A stretch of 64,000 bases of DNA from a phage: the sequence record PV946933.1, one strand, 5' to 3'. A model generated the notes under the pieces. It was not told the origin of the DNA and did no database searches. It saw only the letters and a list, made by a program, of their open reading frames with translations. A program made the translations under genes and the position numbers. Of this stretch, positions 52,120 to 63,055 are shown in pieces; position 1 is the first letter of the stretch, and the number at the start of each line of letters is the position of its first letter.

Positions 52120-52832
52120 ATGAAACTAATCTTTTTAAGTGGTGTAAAGCGTAGTGGAAAAGATACTACTGCAGATTTTATTATGAATAATTATTCTGCA
52201 GTTAAATATCAACTTGCTGGTCCTATTAAGGATGCATTGGCTTATGCATGGGGTGTATTTGCAGCAAACACTGACTATCCTTGTTTAACTCGTAAAGAGT
52301 TTGAAGGAATTGACTATGATCGTGAAACTAATTTAAATCTGACTAAATTAGAAGTAATTACGATTATGGAACAAGCATTTTGCTATCTTAATAGTAAAAG
52401 CCCAATTAAAGGTGTGTTTGTTTTTGATGACGCAGTTAATTTCGTAGCATTTAACAAGATTGCTGACGTTATAAATAATATTGAAGATCAATGGTCAGTC
52501 CGTCGTCTGATGCAAGCCCTAGGTACGGATTTGATTGTTAATAACTTCGACCGCATGTATTGGGTAAAATTATTTGCTTTAGATTATCTTGATAAATTTA
52601 ACTCAGGTTATGATTATTATATCGTTCCTGATACTCGTCAAGATCATGAAATGGATGCGGCTAGGGCGATGGGTGCTACAGTAATTCATGTAGTTCGTCC
52701 TGGTCAAAAATCCAATGATACTCATATTACAGAAGCTGGATTGCCAATTCGTGATGGCGATTTAGTAATTACAAACGATGGTTCTCTTGAAGAACTTTTT
52801 TCTAAAATTAAAAATACACTAAAGGTACTATA

Positions 52833-52833
<1 letters not shown>
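52120..52833 (+). CDS. 1: dNMP kinase gp1
   Basis: P-loop GVKRSGKDT; 237 aa. Confidence 0.9.
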
Positions 52834-53530
<697 letters not shown>

Positions 53531-53542
53531 TTTCACAAAGTT

Positions 53543-53582
53543 GTTTACACGTTGATGAGGTAGTGATACTATTACCTCATCA
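53543..53582 (+). promoter_or_regulatory. early promoter with stem-loop (PeSL-like) copy 1
   Basis: GTTTAC, then tgatgaggta-GTGATACTAT-tacctcatca perfect inverted repeat. Confidence 0.6.
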
Positions 53583-53602
53583 AAATTAATTAGGAAAATA
53601 AA

Positions 53603-53875
53603 ATGAAAACTTTCAAAGAGTTTATCGTTGAATCTGCTCTTAATGAAGAAGTAAAAATTAGCAAATCTGTTAAGACTATGATTGATAATATAAATCATCT
53701 TTATAACATTGATTTGACGAATCATGTAACGTTAGGAAATAAACGAAACTTTTTTGTATTTGATATTTCAGAACTTGATCAGAATCAAATTAATAATATT
53801 GAACGCTTTGCTAATGAAAAAGGTCTGCGTCACGAGACGGCTGGTTATAAAAAATATGCAATTTATTTAAAATAA
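53603..53875 (+). CDS. internal-protein-like head protein with capsid-targeting leader (ipI position, 90 aa)
   Basis: N-terminus MKTFKEFIVE; position next to 57B. Confidence 0.6.
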   Translation: MKTFKEFIVESALNEEVKISKSVKTMIDNINHLYNIDLTNHVTLGNKRNFFVFDISELDQNQINNIERFANEKGLRHETAGYKKYAIYLK

Positions 53876-53878
53876 ATT

Positions 53879-53920
53879 GTTTACACGGTGGTTTAGTTGT
53901 GATACTATTACCCTATCAAA
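53879..53920 (+). promoter_or_regulatory. early promoter with stem-loop (PeSL-like) copy 2
   Basis: GTTTAC...GTGATACTATTACCCTATCAA. Confidence 0.55.
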
Positions 53921-53942
53921 ACAAAACTAAATGGAAATCAAA

Positions 53943-54251
53943 ATGAAAACATATCAAGAATTTATCAATGAAGCGGCTGCACCAAAGACATTCGTTATTA
54001 ATACTCAGGCGAGTCTTGATGATGAGTACGCGGAGGCAATTCTGAGGTCACTTGCTAAGAACGGCGTTGAAGTAATCGCCTCGGACTTTAAGAAAGGGGC
54101 TTCCGAGATGTTTATTTCTATAACTAAAGGATCTAAAGCTAAAATCAAATCATCATTCGGTGTTGCTCGTACCGATCAAATCGACAATCATGACTTTAAA
54201 CAAACTGGTGTTAAACGGCAGAACACAATTGCATCACGCGGAATAAAATAG
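53943..54251 (+). CDS. IPII-paralogous internal protein with capsid-targeting leader
   Basis: MKTYQEFINE leader; body aligns with the ipII product (PKTFVINTQASLDDEYAEAI vs PKVFQICSQGNLDKEYVDAI). Confidence 0.65.
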   Translation: MKTYQEFINEAAAPKTFVINTQASLDDEYAEAILRSLAKNGVEVIASDFKKGASEMFISITKGSKAKIKSSFGVARTDQIDNHDFKQTGVKRQNTIASRGIK

Positions 54252-54263
54252 TTTATAAAAACA

Positions 54264-54305
54264 GTTTACTTTTAGATGGGGTAGTGATACTATTACCCTA
54301 TCAAC
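54264..54305 (+). promoter_or_regulatory. early promoter with stem-loop (PeSL-like) copy 3
   Basis: GTTTAC...gatggggta-GTGATACTAT-taccctatc. Confidence 0.55.
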
Positions 54306-54321
54306 TACTGAGGAGAATAAA

Positions 54322-54507
54322 ATGAAACGTTGTGAATTAATTCGAAATGTTGCTATTGCAATTTCTGCTTCCGCTTTTAGTTTTTCAATGTTTGTTGGAT
54401 TTATATGCGGATTATTAACTACAGCAGAAAATGTTTTTTCACTTGTAGTAGCATTTTTAATTGGTTTAATCGCTATTGTTATGGATAAAATTTCTAAAGG
54501 TGAATAG
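54322..54507 (+). CDS. small hydrophobic (membrane) protein, 61 aa
   Basis: two predicted hydrophobic segments; GAGGAG RBS. Confidence 0.5.
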   Translation: MKRCELIRNVAIAISASAFSFSMFVGFICGLLTTAENVFSLVVAFLIGLIAIVMDKISKGE

Positions 54508-54508
54508 A

Positions 54509-54886
54509 ATGTATAAAGTGTACGCGGATTATCAGGCTAATCCATCTAAAAAGCCAAGCTGTCAAATAGGATGGGCTCATGATACTTTGCTTGAAGCAGT
54601 AGATGCTGCTCAAAAATTGGGATATAAATATGTAGAGATTGTTCAACTACCATCAGGAAAAGTTATTACTCTTGAAGAGTTCAATAATATTAAACCAAAC
54701 TTTTTACTTTTTGCAGGTGATAATTATTATCCTCGTGGTGGATATGATGATTTGATTGCGTATGCTGAAACAGAAGATGAATTACGCCAAATTATTGAAG
54801 ACAATAAATCAAAACGATTTGGCGATAGTTTTGACTGGTGGCAAATCGTAAATGCCCATACACATACTATTGTTGATAAAGGTTAA
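54509..54886 (+). CDS. hypothetical protein (125 aa)
   Basis: ATG at 54509 with AAAGGTGAA RBS. Confidence 0.5.
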   Translation: MYKVYADYQANPSKKPSCQIGWAHDTLLEAVDAAQKLGYKYVEIVQLPSGKVITLEEFNNIKPNFLLFAGDNYYPRGGYDDLIAYAETEDELRQIIEDNKSKRFGDSFDWWQIVNAHTHTIVDKG

Positions 54887-54888
54887 TA

Positions 54889-55176
54889 ATGATTCTTTAT
54901 GCGAAAGTATCATCCATTGAAAATGGATATAAATATGATCAAGAAGCAGCTAAAGCCTTGATTGATGATTATGGCATTTTAACATGTTTTGAAGTTGAAA
55001 AGGTTTACATTGACCGTTCATCTTCTCAAGTTAAATTAGTGAAGGAAGACCGTAAATTTAATACAGTAAATTTTGATTTCTTTATTGAAACAGAAAAAGG
55101 TCCTCTTGAATATGATATTTTCAAGAATCCTTTGGGTCTTGAATGCATCGTAAATATGTATTATCATAAATGGTAA
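54889..55176 (+). CDS. hypothetical protein (95 aa)
   Basis: coupled to the preceding ORF. Confidence 0.5.
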   Translation: MILYAKVSSIENGYKYDQEAAKALIDDYGILTCFEVEKVYIDRSSSQVKLVKEDRKFNTVNFDFFIETEKGPLEYDIFKNPLGLECIVNMYYHKW

Positions 55177-55273
55177 ATATGCTTTAAGAATTATTTGTTA
55201 TTATTAACTCATATCGCACTGATTAATACCCTCTATCATCAAGGGTTCTTGTTTGAGAGCCTTTGTTAATAAT

Positions 55274-55346
55274 TGGGAATTAGCCAAGTTGGTAAGGCAT
55301 AGCATTTTGACTGCTAGATGCAAAGGTTCGAGTCCTTTATTCCCAG
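55274..55346 (+). tRNA. tRNA-Gln (anticodon UUG)
   Basis: cloverleaf read by eye: acceptor tgggaat/attccca, anticodon loop ttTTGac. Confidence 0.85.
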
Positions 55347-55347
55347 C

Positions 55348-55434
55348 GCGAGAATGGTCAAATTGGTAAAGGCACAGCACTTAAAATGCTGCGGAATGAT
55401 TTCCTTGTGGGTTCGAGTCCCACTTCTCGCACCA
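55348..55434 (+). tRNA. tRNA-Leu (UAA), type II, CCA encoded
   Basis: acceptor gcgagaa/ttctcgc; loop cTTAAaa; long variable arm. Confidence 0.85.
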
Positions 55435-55439
55435 AATTT

Positions 55440-55513
<74 letters not shown>

Positions 55514-55523
55514 ATTTAATTTA

Positions 55524-55597
55524 CTCCGTGTAGCTCAGTTTGGTAGAGCGCCTGATTTGGGATCAGGAGGTCCAAGGTTCAAATCCTTGTATGGAGA
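55524..55597 (+). tRNA. tRNA-Pro (UGG)
   Basis: tagctcagtttggtagagc D-arm; loop tTTGGGa. Confidence 0.85.
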
Positions 55598-55599
55598 CT

Positions 55600-55689
55600 G
55601 GAGGCGTGGCAGAGTGGTTTAATGCACCGGTCTTGAAAACCGGCAGTCGCTCCGGCGACTCATAGGTTCAAATCCTATCGCCTCCGCCA
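55600..55689 (+). tRNA. tRNA-Ser (UGA), type II
   Basis: acceptor ggaggcg/cgcctcc; loop cTTGAaa; long variable arm. Confidence 0.85.
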
Positions 55690-55694
55690 GTTTT

Positions 55695-55770
55695 GCTGAT
55701 TTAGCTCAGTAGGTAGAGCAACTCACTTGTAATGAGAAGGTCGGCGGTTCGATTCCGTCAATCAGCACCA
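55695..55770 (+). tRNA. tRNA-Thr (UGU)
   Basis: acceptor gctgatt/aatcagc; loop cTTGTAa. Confidence 0.85.
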
Positions 55771-55771
55771 A

Positions 55772-55846
55772 GGCCCTGTAGCTGGAAGGTTCAAGCAAGC
55801 GACTCATAATCGCCAGATGGTGGTTCAATTCCACCCAGGGCCACCA
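55772..55846 (+). tRNA. tRNA-Ile (CAU, lysidine type) or Met
   Basis: acceptor ggccctg/cagggcc; loop cTCATAa. Confidence 0.75.
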
Positions 55847-55859
55847 AATTAAGAATTAA

Positions 55860-55946
55860 GGGGAGTTATCCCGTAGAGGTAGCGGTGTGGACTGTAAATC
55901 CATTGTCATTGCGACTCGGGTGGTTCGACTCCATCACTCCCCACCA
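55860..55946 (+). tRNA. tRNA-Tyr (GUA), type II
   Basis: acceptor ggggagt/actcccc; loop cTGTAaa; long variable arm. Confidence 0.8.
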
Positions 55947-55950
55947 ATTT

Positions 55951-56025
55951 GGATGTGTAGCTCAATGGCAGAGCGATCGCCTGTTAAGCGATTGGTTATA
56001 GGTTCGAATCCTATCACGTCCGCCA
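55951..56025 (+). tRNA. tRNA-Asn (GUU)
   Basis: acceptor ggatgtg/cacgtcc; loop cTGTTAa. Confidence 0.8.
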
Positions 56026-56029
56026 AATC

Positions 56030-56105
56030 CGAGGCATAGCTCAGAAGGAAGAGCAAGGACCTTCTAAGTCCTGGGTCGTAGGTTCGATCCCTACTGCCTC
56101 GACCA
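56030..56105 (+). tRNA. tRNA-Arg (UCU)
   Basis: acceptor cgaggca/tgcctcg; loop cTTCTAa. Confidence 0.85.
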
Positions 56106-56121
56106 ATTAAGTGAGGAAAAT

Positions 56122-56472
56122 ATGAAAGGTAATGTTTATTTAGTAGTTCATGATTTAACATTCTATTTTAATCACAATGACACTGTTATTTCTGAACGTG
56201 TAATTAATTTACTTTATCAGCATGCAGATTATGTTTATGTCGAAAACGAATACGGTCATTGGCAATTTCTCAAAAATCGTTCATTTGGTTTAGATGGTTA
56301 CGAATACTTTGAACGTAAAGACCTTTTAGATAAAATTCCATTATCTACACAATATCAAAATCACAAGTCTTTATATAAATGCCGTCCAATTCGAAATGCT
56401 GAATCTGCGTATGAAGTAATTGATTTATGGCGTAAACGTCGTGGACAGGTTGATGCTTTAAAAGAATACTAA
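56122..56472 (+). CDS. hypothetical protein (116 aa) immediately after the tRNA cluster
   Basis: GAGGAAAA RBS; no recognisable motif. Confidence 0.5.
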   Translation: MKGNVYLVVHDLTFYFNHNDTVISERVINLLYQHADYVYVENEYGHWQFLKNRSFGLDGYEYFERKDLLDKIPLSTQYQNHKSLYKCRPIRNAESAYEVIDLWRKRRGQVDALKEY

Positions 56473-56559
56473 GAAACCGGGTCGCTATCGGTAAGTCGTC
56501 GGACTGATGTTCCCTGGAGTATAGTTTCTCCCACAGTTTTACTGTGTTCTGATTCTTTA

Positions 56560-56730
56560 CTATCACAGCAGAAACGGCGCATCAAATTATCGATTCGAGG
56601 AAATATCTTTGCCGTAAGCCGAGTAGCGTTTTTGACGGAACGTTCGGATATGGTCGAGATATGGCCTTTTAAAAATATTAAGTAGCGTCAACTGCTTAAT
56701 AACCGGGTTCGAATCCCGGCGTTTCGTACA
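56560..56730 (+). ncRNA. candidate small stable RNA with tRNA-like 3' module
   Basis: T-arm ccggg-TTCGAAT-cccgg followed by a 7-nt strand (cgtttcg) complementary to cggaacg at 56636-56642; no ORF; boundaries approximate. Confidence 0.35.
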
Positions 56731-56779
56731 AACACTTGCCTTAGCAGGTGGAACCCCGACAAGGTTGCCGCAAGGCTTA

Positions 56780-56806
56780 GCCCCGACCGAAAGGTTGGGG
56801 CTTTTT
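56780..56806 (+). terminator. rho-independent terminator gccccgacc-gaaa-ggttggggc plus TTTTT
   Basis: 9-bp stem, GAAA loop, T5 tail. Confidence 0.7.
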
Positions 56807-56808
56807 AG

Positions 56809-56816
56809 TATAAATA
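56809..56816 (+). promoter_or_regulatory. late promoter TATAAATA upstream of a CTS-bearing gene
   Basis: motif 40 nt before the ATG at 56856. Confidence 0.5.
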
Positions 56817-56855
56817 TAGTAGTGTATTAAATCACGAATTAAAACAGGAAATAAG

Positions 56856-57329
56856 ATGAAATCATATGCTCAATTTTTAAATGAAGTGGTGTTAAATGAA
56901 GCATCCGCTTCAGATGTTCGCGCTGTAGCAACTGCTGCTATTAAAGCTGGTAAATATTCTTATAAAGATGCTTCTGACGAATCCCGGTACAAGTTCTACG
57001 ACGATATGAGAGCTGAAGGCTTTGTGGGTAACTATGTTACCACCGCCTGGAAAAGTCTGGTTGCTACTGGTGCGGCTTTCGAAAAACCTTCCGGTAAACC
57101 TGCTCCTAAAGCAGATCCTAAAGCTGCACAAGAAAAAAATATTGTTAAAGGAATTATCGCTAAATATGAAGCTATCCTTAAAGAGCTTTTAGTAATTAAA
57201 ACCGAAGGCCAAAAATTAGCCCGTGCCTATAGTTTCAAAGATAATCCACATGCTCATGACCTAGAGTATGTTGAAGATCTCCAAAAAATCATCAAAGACC
57301 GCATTTGGTCTGCTAAACAAATCAAATAA
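56856..57329 (+). CDS. internal-protein-like head protein with capsid-targeting leader (157 aa)
   Basis: N-terminus MKSYAQFLNEVVLNE. Confidence 0.6.
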   Translation: MKSYAQFLNEVVLNEASASDVRAVATAAIKAGKYSYKDASDESRYKFYDDMRAEGFVGNYVTTAWKSLVATGAAFEKPSGKPAPKADPKAAQEKNIVKGIIAKYEAILKELLVIKTEGQKLARAYSFKDNPHAHDLEYVEDLQKIIKDRIWSAKQIK

Positions 57330-57337
57330 CATTCTTA

Positions 57338-57365
57338 GCCTCGACCGAAAGGTTGGGGCTTTTTA
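57338..57365 (+). terminator. rho-independent terminator gcctcgacc-gaaa-ggttggggc plus TTTT (repeat of the one at 56780)
   Basis: stem-loop plus T-run; one mismatch relative to the upstream copy. Confidence 0.7.
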
Positions 57366-57454
57366 GTTTGAATCGCATAGAGAATGCTGTTACGGATAAT
57401 AACAAAGTAATAAATAATTAATAACTGACCGATAAATTATTTCAAGGATTTTAA

Positions 57455-58018
57455 ATGAAAACCTATGCCGAATTTTTAACCGAAGCAGCAAAATTACCAT
57501 CTGAAGCAGAACTTACTAAAGTATTCTTCCAATTGGACCCAAAAGACCGTGGCGATTTTCTTAAGTGGAAAGCTAAAGCTATTGAAATGTATAACATCGA
57601 TAATAGTTCTTTTACGATGAGTCAAGAAAATAAATTCAATAAAGCATTTTTCAAAATTTCTAAGAAATTAGCATCTGGCGCTCAGGTTCCTAAATCTGCA
57701 TTAGCTACTCCTGAACGTGCACCTGTTAAAATTTCTAAGAATATGTTCGACACTAAAAAATACGTTAATGCTTTGAATAAAGCTCTTGATGCATTGGATG
57801 ATGCAAAGAAGGCAGCCCGTGATCTTCAAGACGTGTACACCGATTTTGATCGTAAAACTAAAGGTTCTATTTCAAATAGCGAACGCAATAGTGTAAGTGT
57901 TTATTCTGATAGCCTTGATGTTCTTGGCGATGCGTATACTGAAATTAAAAATCGTATTAACACCGCATCTAAGCTAAAAGCTGCCGTAGAAGCTATAATA
58001 ACTAAACTAGGTAAATAA
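57455..58018 (+). CDS. internal-protein-like head protein with capsid-targeting leader (187 aa)
   Basis: N-terminus MKTYAEFLTE; Lys/Ala-rich body. Confidence 0.6.
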   Translation: MKTYAEFLTEAAKLPSEAELTKVFFQLDPKDRGDFLKWKAKAIEMYNIDNSSFTMSQENKFNKAFFKISKKLASGAQVPKSALATPERAPVKISKNMFDTKKYVNALNKALDALDDAKKAARDLQDVYTDFDRKTKGSISNSERNSVSVYSDSLDVLGDAYTEIKNRINTASKLKAAVEAIITKLGK

Positions 58019-58026
58019 TTTTAAAT

Positions 58027-58051
58027 CCCTATCTAAATGATAGGGCTTTTT
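58027..58051 (+). terminator. hairpin ccctatc-taaat-gataggg-c plus TTTTT
   Basis: seen directly. Confidence 0.65.
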
Positions 58052-58185
58052 GATATCTAGGCCTTTCTGGACCTCTCTAAGAATCATTTAGTTTCTACCC
58101 TTTATAATATATTATCCTATCCTTTAATTGCCCCTCCCTGTCCTAGAATTCCCTAAAACTTTTTAAAAAATTTTTTCACAAAACT

Positions 58186-58217
58186 GTTTACATCCCCGTT
58201 CTTCCATGGTACTATAC
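58186..58217 (+). promoter_or_regulatory. early-promoter-like GTTTAC ... TGGTACTAT
   Basis: -35 GTTTAC at 58186-58191; extended -10 at 58207-58217. Confidence 0.5.
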
Positions 58218-58259
58218 AACTATCAACTACTGATACAGAAAAACAACTTGGAGAATGAA

Positions 58260-58523
58260 ATGGATAATTACGGCGAACTGTTCAACTTCTTTATGAAATG
58301 CGTTTCAGAAGATTTCGGTCGTACAGTGAATGATATTAAAGTCATCGGTCCTGACCATCCGATGTTTGAAACTTACGCAGTAATGGGTAATGAAGACGGT
58401 CAGTGGTATACTGTAAAAGTTGTGATTAATATGTTCACTGCTGAAGGTTATGTTAAACTGTCTTCTAAAGTTTATCATGATAATGATGAAATCGCAGAAG
58501 AATATTTCAATAATATGAAATAA
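58260..58523 (+). CDS. hypothetical protein (87 aa from ATG at 58260)
   Basis: GGAGAA RBS; the ORF-track start at 58206 falls inside the promoter -10. Confidence 0.5.
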   Translation: MDNYGELFNFFMKCVSEDFGRTVNDIKVIGPDHPMFETYAVMGNEDGQWYTVKVVINMFTAEGYVKLSSKVYHDNDEIAEEYFNNMK

Positions 58524-58591
58524 TTGTGTACAAACACCAAGGACGGTGTTATTATAGACTTATCAAAACAAACACAGAAACGGAGAAATAA

Positions 58592-61728: not shown

Positions 61729-61743
61729 AGTTGTTTACTTTCT

Positions 61744-61772
61744 CCTAGAACTGTGATAGTATATTCATAGTT
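61744..61772 (+). promoter_or_regulatory. early-promoter-like GTTTAC ... TGATAGTAT
   Basis: -35 at 61744-61749; -10 at 61764-61772. Confidence 0.5.
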
Positions 61773-61799
61773 ACTAATTAAAATATTTAAAGGAACCAT

Positions 61800-62117
61800 A
61801 TGAAAACGTTTAAAGAATTTATTGCAGAATCTGCCCAAGGACAACGTGTAGAAGGCGGTTATATCTGGATTGAACAAGTTGAGCCGCCAAGTCGCACTTC
61901 TACAGGTAAATGGAAAATCACTGTTGATGGTCCTGGTGGTAAACGTAGGACTCTTAAAGAAATTAACGGGTACTATGAAGAAGCTCTTTCTGACGCGGGT
62001 ACTTATATGATGCAAATCATGATTAAAAACCCAGAAAATCGTTTTGCGGCTAGAGTTTTCCGCCGTATTGGAAATAAGCTTTATGATGCATATTCTAAAA
62101 ACTTCCCTAAAGAATAA
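61800..62117 (+). CDS. internal-protein-like head protein with capsid-targeting leader (105 aa)
   Basis: N-terminus MKTFKEFIAE; basic body. Confidence 0.6.
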   Translation: MKTFKEFIAESAQGQRVEGGYIWIEQVEPPSRTSTGKWKITVDGPGGKRRTLKEINGYYEEALSDAGTYMMQIMIKNPENRFAARVFRRIGNKLYDAYSKNFPKE

Positions 62118-62132
62118 AAATAAAGGAAATAC

Positions 62133-62711
62133 ATGAAAACCTATAAAGAATTTATCGCTGAAGCTTCTGTAGTAAAGGCCAAAGGCATTAATAAAGATGA
62201 GTGGACTTATCGTGGCGGAAACGGCTTTGACCCTAAAACTGCTCCACTTGAACGATATCTAGCCACAAAAGCTTCTGATTTTAAAGCCTTCGCCTGGGAA
62301 GGACTTCGCTGGCGTAACGATCTAAATATTGAAGTTGACGGACTTAAATTTGCTCATATTGAAGATGTTGTTGCTAGTAACTTAGACGCAGCTTTTGTTA
62401 AAGCCGACAGTGATCTTCGTCGCTGGAATTTAAAACTGTTCTCTAAACAAAAAGGCCCGAAGTTTGTGCCTAAAGCCGGTAAATGGGTCATTGATAATAA
62501 ATTAGCTAAGGCTGTCAACTACGCTGGTCTTGAATTCGCCAAGCACAAATCATCATGGAAAGGTCTTGATGCAATGGCTTTCCGTAAAGAATTTGCCGAT
62601 GTTATGGCTAAAGGCGGCTTTAAGGCAGAAATAGATACCTCTAAAGGTACGTTTAAGGACGCTAATGTTCAGTACGCTTATGCCGTTGCTAATGCAGCCC
62701 GTGGTAATTAA
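62133..62711 (+). CDS. ipIII: internal protein III
   Basis: MKTYKEFIAE leader; 192 aa; position next to e; recalled similarity to T4 IPIII. Confidence 0.8.
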   Translation: MKTYKEFIAEASVVKAKGINKDEWTYRGGNGFDPKTAPLERYLATKASDFKAFAWEGLRWRNDLNIEVDGLKFAHIEDVVASNLDAAFVKADSDLRRWNLKLFSKQKGPKFVPKAGKWVIDNKLAKAVNYAGLEFAKHKSSWKGLDAMAFRKEFADVMAKGGFKAEIDTSKGTFKDANVQYAYAVANAARGN

Positions 62712-62752: not shown

Positions 62753-63055
62753 ATGAAAACATTTAAAGAATTTATCACTGAAGCAAAAGCCCCGAAGGTT
62801 TTTCAAATTTGTTCACAAGGAAATTTAGACAAAGAATACGTTGACGCCATCGTAGCAAGCATTGTCAACCAAGGCGTGCAAGTAGATGCAGTTGAATTTA
62901 CCAAAGGCCCTACCTTTAATATCGTTGTATCTAAGGGTTCTTTGGCTAAAATTAAAAAGGCCTGGGGTGTTATGAGAGCTTACCAAGTAGATGATTCTGC
63001 TCCCGGGCCGAAAGTACGAATGAATACCCTTAAGGGAGGCCGTGAATACGTTTAG
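62753..63055 (+). CDS. ipII: internal protein II
   Basis: MKTFKEFITE leader; 100 aa; position. Confidence 0.75.
   Translation: MKTFKEFITEAKAPKVFQICSQGNLDKEYVDAIVASIVNQGVQVDAVEFTKGPTFNIVVSKGSLAKIKKAWGVMRAYQVDDSAPGPKVRMNTLKGGREYV

Follow-up and report, generated by a model that had tools for sequence, protein, structure and literature searches.

Three repeated elements between 53543 and 54304 of a 64,000-nt stretch of phage DNA (sequence record PV946933.1; the whole stretch is referred to here as the window) are best explained as strong T4-type early promoters that, together with the leader codons downstream of them, serve as recombination linkers at the classical ipI hyperplastic locus, a reading to which we assign a probability of about 85%. 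Host sigma-70 RNA polymerase would use these cassettes immediately after infection; cassette 1 would drive the Ip9-like gene, cassette 2 the Ip7-like gene and cassette 3 the trna.4-trna.3-trna.2 block. The otherwise unrelated internal protein (IP) genes have in common only a promoter block of ~60-70 nt and the leader codons MKT[YF].EF and, as the sole shared sequence, these would therefore provide the linkers for phage homologous recombination. The mobile unit would extend from core to core, comprising the 3' half of one cassette, the 5' UTR, the IP gene and the 5' half of the next cassette. For the hairpin associated with the cassettes, the most likely role is not that of a canonical intrinsic terminator: it would mark the 3' end of the message coming from upstream, or insulate it, whether through attenuation, through pausing or by shielding it from 3' exonucleases.

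The source phage is a T4/T2-like Tequatrovirus. On the plus strand, genes 1, 57A and 57B occupy 52120-53530 and are followed by small ORFs and by ten tRNA genes (55274-56105), and comparison with the T4 annotation revealed the same gene order (57B, ipI, trna.4, trna.3, trna.2, tRNAs). The T4 57B homologue (53075-53530, plus strand) encodes Acb1, an anti-CBASS phosphodiesterase (Pfam PF23474, E = 2.6e-60), and constitutes the constant left flank of the variable locus. Next on the same strand are two ORFs assigned to internal head protein families, a 90-aa Ip9-like product (53603-53875; phrog_7673, E = 9e-56) that clusters with RB32 Ip9, and a 102-aa Ip7-like product (53943-54251; phrog_2667, E = 2.7e-42) that clusters with T2 and RB32 Ip7. 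Their leaders, MKTFKEFIVE and MKTYQEFINE respectively, fit the MKT[YF].EF..E capsid-targeting pattern, and their small size is likewise that of T-even IP cargo. The plus-strand block that follows (54322-55176), identified by PHROG matches and by the T4, T2 and RB32 annotation, consists of trna.4 (54322-54507), which encodes a 61-aa membrane protein with the N-terminus MKRCELIRNV and without the MKT[YF].EF..E leader, trna.3 (54509-54886) and trna.2 (54889-55176); the three genes are tightly packed, and trna.3 and trna.2 have no promoter of their own. Pfam returned no match for the five small ORFs, whose families were given by PHROGs, and Rfam at gathering thresholds identified only the ten tRNAs in 52500-58500 and no family for the hairpins. 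A late promoter is located at 52470, upstream of the IP genes. We considered cassette 3 as the main promoter of the tRNA cluster and dropped this assignment: the T4 cluster is transcribed mainly from a middle promoter just upstream of it, and a MotA box matching that promoter is present at 55178-55186 in the window.

The sequence-only reading had described the repeat with a 15-nt spacer, for which the window contains no match even with two mismatches; its coordinates were nevertheless right, and the true spacer is 14 nt. The motif GTTTAC-N14-GTGATACTATTACC has exactly three matches, all on the plus strand (53543-53576, 53879-53912 and 54264-54297), as that reading had counted, and a search of the 64 kb for the element returned no further site even when three mismatches were allowed. 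Dinucleotide shuffles yielded no match in 100 trials (0 expected by chance), and a repeat search of the window grouped the three sites into a single 61-nt family with 72-77% identity. Every copy presents a TTTACA or TTTACT -35 element, a 17-bp spacer, a TGn extension (TG at -15/-14) and a TACTAT -10 element, and the AT content of the 25 nt preceding the -35 is 80%, 92% and 80% in copies 1-3, against 64% for the window. Cassette 1 (53543-53583, plus strand) has its -35 (TTTACA) at 53544-53549, its -10 at 53567-53572 and a predicted +1 A at 53579; cassette 2 (53879-53919, plus strand) has the corresponding elements at 53880-53885 (TTTACA), 53903-53908 and 53915, and cassette 3 (54264-54304, plus strand) at 54265-54270 (TTTACT), 54288-54293 and 54300. 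All three are intergenic, with the upstream stop codon 3-13 nt before the G that precedes the -35 and with GGAAA or GAGGAG and an ATG downstream. The start codons at 53603, 53943 and 54322 lie 26, 30 and 24 nt from the motif end, within the 20-40 bp originally proposed; an in-frame ATG at 53931, upstream of 53943, falls inside the Shine-Dalgarno-like GGAAA.

This architecture follows the UP/-35/TGn/-10 design described for T4 early promoters, and all three copies fit TTTACW-N17-TAYWAT, the promoter consensus of the promoter-early stem-loop (PeSL) elements of PST/T4 (Comeau 2014, PMC4122927). The three repeats can thus be classified from their sequence as paralogous T4-type early promoters, with predicted activity and start sites. 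The same three sites are annotated as "predicted early promoter" in the record of phage fPS-65. The sequences upstream of T4 ipI and trna.4 are positional homologues of cassettes 1 and 3 and are near-identical to them, and we take these T4 sites to be mapped early promoters. The T4 RefSeq record carries no promoter features over the ipI-trna.4 stretch, and the expected T4 coordinates 73903 and 73536 (each ± 1) do not appear in the supplement examined of a bioRxiv paper on NAD-capped T4 RNA, which includes a dRNA-seq table of T4 transcription start sites. As anticipated, the motif also occurs in related phages: near-identical cassettes are found in T4 and T2, with cassette 1 being 94-97% and cassette 3 78-97% identical across T4, T2 and RB32.

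To compare the cargo of these cassettes, we assembled 49 related loci, of which 36 were obtained from IMG/VR by anchoring on Acb1 and 13 came from phage records in GenBank; these were used because scanning IMG/VR for the exact pattern yielded nine stretches, too small a set for a population comparison. The interval between 57B and trna.4 contains from zero to six IP-like ORFs, belonging to more than 12 sequence clusters, and nearly all ORFs in this interval start with the MKT[YF].EF leader. The 16 Tequatrovirus loci present eight arrangements (IpI; IpI-Ip6; Ip5-Ip6; Ip5-Ip7; Ip5-Ip9-Ip7; Ip9-Ip7; Ip7; and Ip6). Comparison of T4-like genomes thus bears out the suggestion that cargo varies between conserved cassettes. 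The accompanying claim that all three downstream ORFs are exchangeable holds only in part. On the evidence of the 49 loci, the Ip9-like and Ip7-like ORFs are exchangeable cargo, but trna.4 is found in 47 of the 49 ORF sets and is therefore a fixed right flank.

Nucleotide comparisons locate the changes in identity at the cassettes. With a 2.3-kb stretch as query, 908 phage records were matched, nearly all of them Tevenvirinae, and the best match, Escherichia phage ECO07P3, is 99.6% identical over the cassette region and also has the Ip9-Ip7 arrangement. When the query is restricted to the 791-bp interval, 610 records match, many of them only at query positions ~1-93, 344-435 and 726-791, which correspond to the cassettes. 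Nucleotide identity to RB32 is 98% in 57B, 80% in Ip9, 97% in Ip7 and 98% in trna.4, with abrupt shifts at the cassettes. In the Mosigvirus LF82-4, the backbone is 69-79% identical, yet Ip7 reaches 94% (nucleotide) and cassette 3 reaches 96%; at another locus, the backbone is 75% and Ip9 91% identical. Such values show that Ip7 or Ip9 has moved across genus boundaries.

Alignment of 46 Tequatrovirus cassettes further delineated the site of exchange. A 10-bp core, GTGATACTAT, is invariant in 43 of the 46, and around it four types of 5' half and three types of 3' half occur in seven of the 12 possible combinations. The 5' half tends to accompany the upstream gene, with alpha following 57B, beta following Ip5 or IpI, and gamma following Ip6, Ip7 or Ip9; delta corresponds to copy 2 of the window. 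The T2 cassette between Ip5 and Ip7 (beta+a) and the RB32 cassette between Ip9 and Ip7 (gamma+a) are recombinants with broken stems. Ip7 is found downstream of 3' halves of type a or b, and Ip9 downstream of type a or c, indicating that crossovers also occur in the conserved leader codons. In loci devoid of Ip5, the beta 5' half directly follows 57B, as would be expected had two tandem cassettes recombined and the DNA between them been deleted. In the record of RB32, Ip9 and Ip7 are already described as "flanked by 43 bp direct repeat". The hybrid cassette at junctions without Ip5 and the direct repeat around the RB32 Ip9-Ip7 insertion would indirectly favour the excision of mini-circles by recombination between adjacent cassettes, a feature of PeSLs.

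These data can also be read, as a possibility that we take seriously without finding it probable, as reflecting ordinary paralogous early promoters that were duplicated with tandem IP genes and are kept similar by tight promoter constraint, with shuffling as a by-product of the very active general homologous recombination of T4, acting wherever there is some homology, and not a property of a mobile cassette. Consistent with this, trna.3 is mosaic, being 81-93% identical or absent between flanks of 97-99% identity, and is not bordered by cassettes; exchange can therefore take place without them, and part of the plasticity is accounted for by general homologous recombination. Likewise, the IP genes at 62133, 62753, 56856 and 57455 in the window have no such cassette, crossovers fall in the coding leader as well as in the promoter, and the authors who described PeSLs themselves state that no recombinase is associated with the elements (Arbiol 2010, PMC2839356). 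Against this account stand three observations: in many of the 610 matching records homology is confined to the cassettes, the halves reassort exactly around the core, and cargo crossed genera with its adjoining cassette, as in LF82-4. In practice, the difference between this account and the linker reading is mainly one of emphasis.

The sequence-only reading had also placed the -10 of each copy within an inverted repeat, which is the case for copies 1 and 3 but not for copy 2. In copy 1 the repeat is perfect, as had been noted, and spans 11 bp (TTGATGAGGTA, 53552-53562; TACCTCATCAA, 53573-53583), with the -10 in the loop; the corresponding RNA folds at -18.1 kcal/mol (z = -4.6), and none of 200 shuffles folds as well. 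Copy 3 contains an imperfect repeat (TAGATGGGGTA, 54273-54283; TACCCTATCAA, 54294-54304) with one G-T and one A-A opposition, again with the -10 in the loop, and its RNA reaches -16.2 kcal/mol (z = -2.6), an energy attained by 3 of 200 shuffles. The 5' arm of copy 2 is degenerate, and no significant stem was detected in this copy (-8.8 kcal/mol, z = -0.56; matched by 47 of 200 shuffles). Stemless cassettes persist, both as copy 2 here and as the recombinant T2 and RB32 cassettes, and the stem is therefore dispensable, at least locally.

To assess the stem more broadly, we examined 78 unique promoters with an extended -10 drawn from all loci and the window, using as controls cassettes with swapped 3' halves or with a shuffled 5' arm. 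A fold across the -10 at or below -10 kcal/mol is predicted in 50% of the 78 promoters and in 2-3% of the controls (Mann-Whitney P ~ 1e-12). At least nine unrelated arm sequences occur in one register (e.g. TTGATGAGGTA, TAGATAGGGTA, GGTAGGACTA, GTGTAGGGATA, GAGGGCTAT and GGGAACAT), and the arms covary in several Tevenvirinae genera. In an ungapped alignment of 77 of the 78 promoters, the helix scores 0.279 for covariation; shuffles score 0.184 (none of 500 reached the observed value; the promoters are related by descent, and the shuffle statistics overstate their independence) and slid registers 0.085-0.174. Because the arms covary in a fixed register above the level of shuffles, the stem is under selection. 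Although stem sequences are unrelated to one another, the centre of symmetry always falls on T-12/A-11, the two bases with which the -10 begins, and the 3' arm of the stem covers approximately -6 to +5 relative to the predicted +1, so that the hairpin can form only in RNA read through from upstream.

A selected stem just past the upstream stop codon would suit a composite of promoter and efficient terminator, as PeSLs were first defined, in which each small gene forms an insulated single-gene unit, and the PeSL211/210 stem-loop of RB49/phi1 indeed lowered lacZ expression to an extent comparable with that seen for rrnB T1. We nonetheless regard this explanation as unlikely for the cassettes of the window. 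Among 38 strong stems, not one has five or more T within the 8 nt beyond it (the average is 1.76), the cassette tails in the window, AAAUUAAUU and CUACUGAGG, are A-rich, and the stems are AT-rich. A terminator scan of the window, which did pick up two canonical terminators with GC-rich stems and T tails (56779 and 57337), did not flag the cassettes, and copy 2 lacks a stem altogether. The products of T4 IP genes are needed late, for head assembly, and an efficient stop would cut the IP genes off from the late promoter at 52470. Since no T-run follows the stems, the hairpins do not appear to be canonical intrinsic terminators, and the "terminator" label is unsupported by their sequence. We would therefore advise reserving the term "promoter-terminator" for T-even cassettes with 3'-end data.

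There is also a slender chance that the inverted repeat is a separate conserved device, distinct from a terminator, whose action would be at the DNA level: a cruciform or single-strand hairpin forming at the -10 would modulate the open complex or be cut by T4 endonuclease VII. The fixed register and centre of symmetry across unrelated stem sequences, the missing terminator tail and the presence of recombination junctions in and beside the stem would agree with such action, which we consider improbable given that the hairpins are weak by DNA parameters (-9.3, -2.7 and -4.9 kcal/mol for copies 1-3) and that the PeSL and T-even literature examined offers no experimental precedent for it. A comparison of mismatches in the stems, made to separate RNA-level from DNA-level function, gave 13 G-U against 10 A-C and favours neither; the interior G-T wobbles found in otherwise perfect stems, in small numbers, would suit RNA better than a two-strand cruciform. 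The recogniser under DNA-level action would be RNA polymerase or a structure-specific nuclease such as endonuclease VII, and nuclease breaks would steer recombination to the cassettes. Were this the case, the hairpin itself would actively direct recombination to these promoters, and with it the exchange of anti-defence genes. Finally, although an inverted repeat over the -10 occupies a classical operator position, we rejected as very improbable its reading as an operator through which a dimeric DNA-binding protein represses these early promoters: a sequence-specific protein would need one conserved half-site, yet the arms vary from cassette to cassette, with at least nine unrelated covarying sequences.

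Both the cassettes and the exchange of their cargo are already known, and the sequence-only reading is in this respect a correct rediscovery with errors of detail. Repoila, Tetart, Bouet and Krisch, in EMBO J in 1994, reportedly described IP ORFs that vary in number and identity, with a conserved leader and conserved regulatory flanks. As later papers describe it, that work concerns the same locus (57B, ip genes, trna.4, tRNAs) and the same families (IpI, Ip5, Ip6, Ip7 and Ip9), and these descriptions reveal no substantive difference from the locus analyzed here. According to the later accounts, Repoila et al. (1994) identified such elements at two T-even IP loci and proposed IP shuffling (PMC2839356, PMC4122927). 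PeSLs were defined by Arbiol 2010 (PMC2839356) and Comeau 2014 (PMC4122927), who cite the IP locus as PeSL-like, and the former considers the T-even IP-locus elements analogues, not homologues, of the RB49/phi1 PeSLs.

The likeness to PeSLs that the sequence-only reading had asserted stands insofar as the cassettes are early-promoter/stem-loop repeats in a hyperplastic region, but it does not extend to homology with the RB49/phi1 elements, and copy 2 has lost its stem. Like PeSLs, the cassettes are intergenic, combine an AT-rich tract, -35 and -10 elements with a 17-bp spacer, a stem-loop (in copies 1 and 3), a Shine-Dalgarno sequence and an ATG, and are repeated in a hyperplastic region beside insertions, deletions and replacements between close relatives. 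A stem over the -10 is among the commonest positions named for PeSLs (PMC2839356; PMC4122927), although the legend in Comeau 2014 (PMC4122927) places PST stems just upstream of the promoter, whereas those of the window embrace the -10. The RB49/phi1 PeSLs present near-perfect TTGACA/TATAAT boxes and stems with G/C runs shown to terminate; the GC-rich RB49/phi1 element is the sole experimental case of termination. In contrast, the window cassettes combine GTTTAC/TACTAT and TGn with AT-rich stems and no T-run, one copy being stemless, and neither the RB49/phi1 boxes nor their G-run/C-run stem were found in them. Integron cassettes, lambdoid "morons" and Botstein-Campbell linkers are comparable in that small accessory genes move between short conserved sequences that aid their expression, an analogy drawn by the PeSL authors themselves (Arbiol 2010, PMC2839356). 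Unlike in integrons, there is no integrase/attC-like system, each gene brings or receives a promoter, and exchange apparently proceeds by general homologous recombination.

These results leave current understanding unchanged, the phenomenon having been published in 1994, as far as later descriptions of that work convey, and named in 2010. As a class, T-even internal proteins are packaged in the capsid and processed by the prohead protease. Those of T4 are injected along with the DNA, and three of them, Ip1, Ip2 and Ip3, act against GmrSD-type restriction enzymes, each disarming a single specific one. Because of this injection and of the disarming of GmrSD enzymes by Ip1-Ip3, the cassette-bounded slots can be seen as the place where T-even phages keep and swap first-strike anti-restriction proteins, and linkers composed of promoter and leader would explain quick changes in host range. 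By their sequence assignment, the Ip9-like and Ip7-like products are candidate injected anti-defence proteins.

Related early promoters are also present elsewhere in the window. At 61733-61778 (plus strand), a GTTTAC-N14-GTGATAGTAT promoter precedes an IP-like gene (61800-62117) at a second IP locus, and its -10 is enclosed by a stem that differs from those of the cassettes (AGAACTGTGA / TCATAGTT, -10.3 kcal/mol). Another, at 58186-58231 (plus strand; GTTTACA...TGGTACTAT...CTATCAACTACTGA), has no stem; two of its blocks, TTCACAAAAC upstream and ATCAACTACTGA in the transcribed part, are shared with cassettes 1 and 3.

Besides the Ip9-like and Ip7-like genes, five ORFs on the plus strand carry the internal-protein (IP) leader, at 56856-57329 (MKSYAQFLNE), 57455-58018 (MKTYAEFLTE), 61800-62117 (MKTFKEFIAE), 62133-62711 (MKTYKEFIAE) and 62753-63055 (MKTFKEFITE), and the window therefore contains three IP loci with seven IP-like genes. 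Among these five additional ORFs, only the gene at 61800 is preceded by a cassette-like early promoter (61733), and nothing beyond a Shine-Dalgarno sequence precedes the genes at 62133 and 62753. The IP-like gene at 56856-57329 has one copy of the same canonical terminator hairpin, AGCC[C/T]CGACCGAAAGGTTGGGGCTTTTT, on each side (56779-56802 and 57337-57360, plus strand), and is a second type of IP gene with repeats at its borders, these being terminators rather than promoters. The first terminator copy is followed by the late-promoter consensus TATAAATA at 56809-56816 (plus strand).

Sequence identities among related loci indicate that IP genes moved between genera recently. In locus L057 (Escherichia phage LF82-4, a Mosigvirus; 2566-2943), Ip7 and cassette 3 are 94-96% identical to the window, and backbone genes 1, 57A, 57B and trna.4 show 69-79% identity to it. 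Loci L024 and L003 are further examples; Ip9 in L003 is 91% identical to its counterpart in the window, versus 75% for the backbone. Mosaicism also extends to trna.3 (54509-54886), which shows 81-93% identity, or is missing, in phages with trna.4 and trna.2 at 95-99%; this mosaic segment has no cassette at either border.

The transcripts predicted at 53579-53583, 53915-53919, 54300-54304, 58222-58226 and 58562-58566 all start with ATCAA. Most of the related promoters of other phages are alike in this respect, with the consensus ...CTATCAA, and conservation of this initial transcribed sequence does not depend on the stem. A preference for A at +1 has been reported for T4 promoters, and the A-first predicted transcripts of the window fit it. 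The late-promoter consensus TATAAATA also occurs at 52470-52477 (plus strand), within gene 1 and upstream of 57A. Late transcripts from this putative promoter could reach the IP genes only via read-through of cassette 1, a requirement relevant to the question of termination at the cassette hairpin.

Directly upstream of tRNA-Gln, at 55178-55204 (plus strand), is a middle promoter with a MotA box (TATGCTTTA, 12 bp, TATTAT). This agrees with work on T4 in which a middle promoter was reported to be the main source of tRNA-cluster transcripts (PMC2330249). Together, this promoter and the T4 precedent rule out cassette 3 as the main tRNA promoter. An exact 13-nt repeat, GGATATAAATATG, which includes the late-promoter consensus TATAAATA, is present on the plus strand within trna.3 (54620-54632) and early in trna.2, ~36 nt past the start of that ORF (54925-54937). 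The two copies may serve the tRNA region as late promoters, or may reflect chance.

The cluster itself comprises 10 tRNA genes (Gln, Leu, Gly, Pro, Ser, Thr, Met, Tyr, Asn and Arg; 55274-56105, plus strand) and lacks segB, whereas T4 has 8 tRNAs and segB; the clusters of relatives vary in the presence of His, in carrying Ile or Met, and in the presence of segB. The sequence GGTTCGAATCCCGG (56700-56726, plus strand), located upstream of the 56779 terminator, resembles a tRNA T-arm but received no call from ARAGORN or Rfam. Possibly it is homologous to the T4 stable RNAs rnaC/rnaD, whose position, following tRNA-Arg, corresponds to this one.
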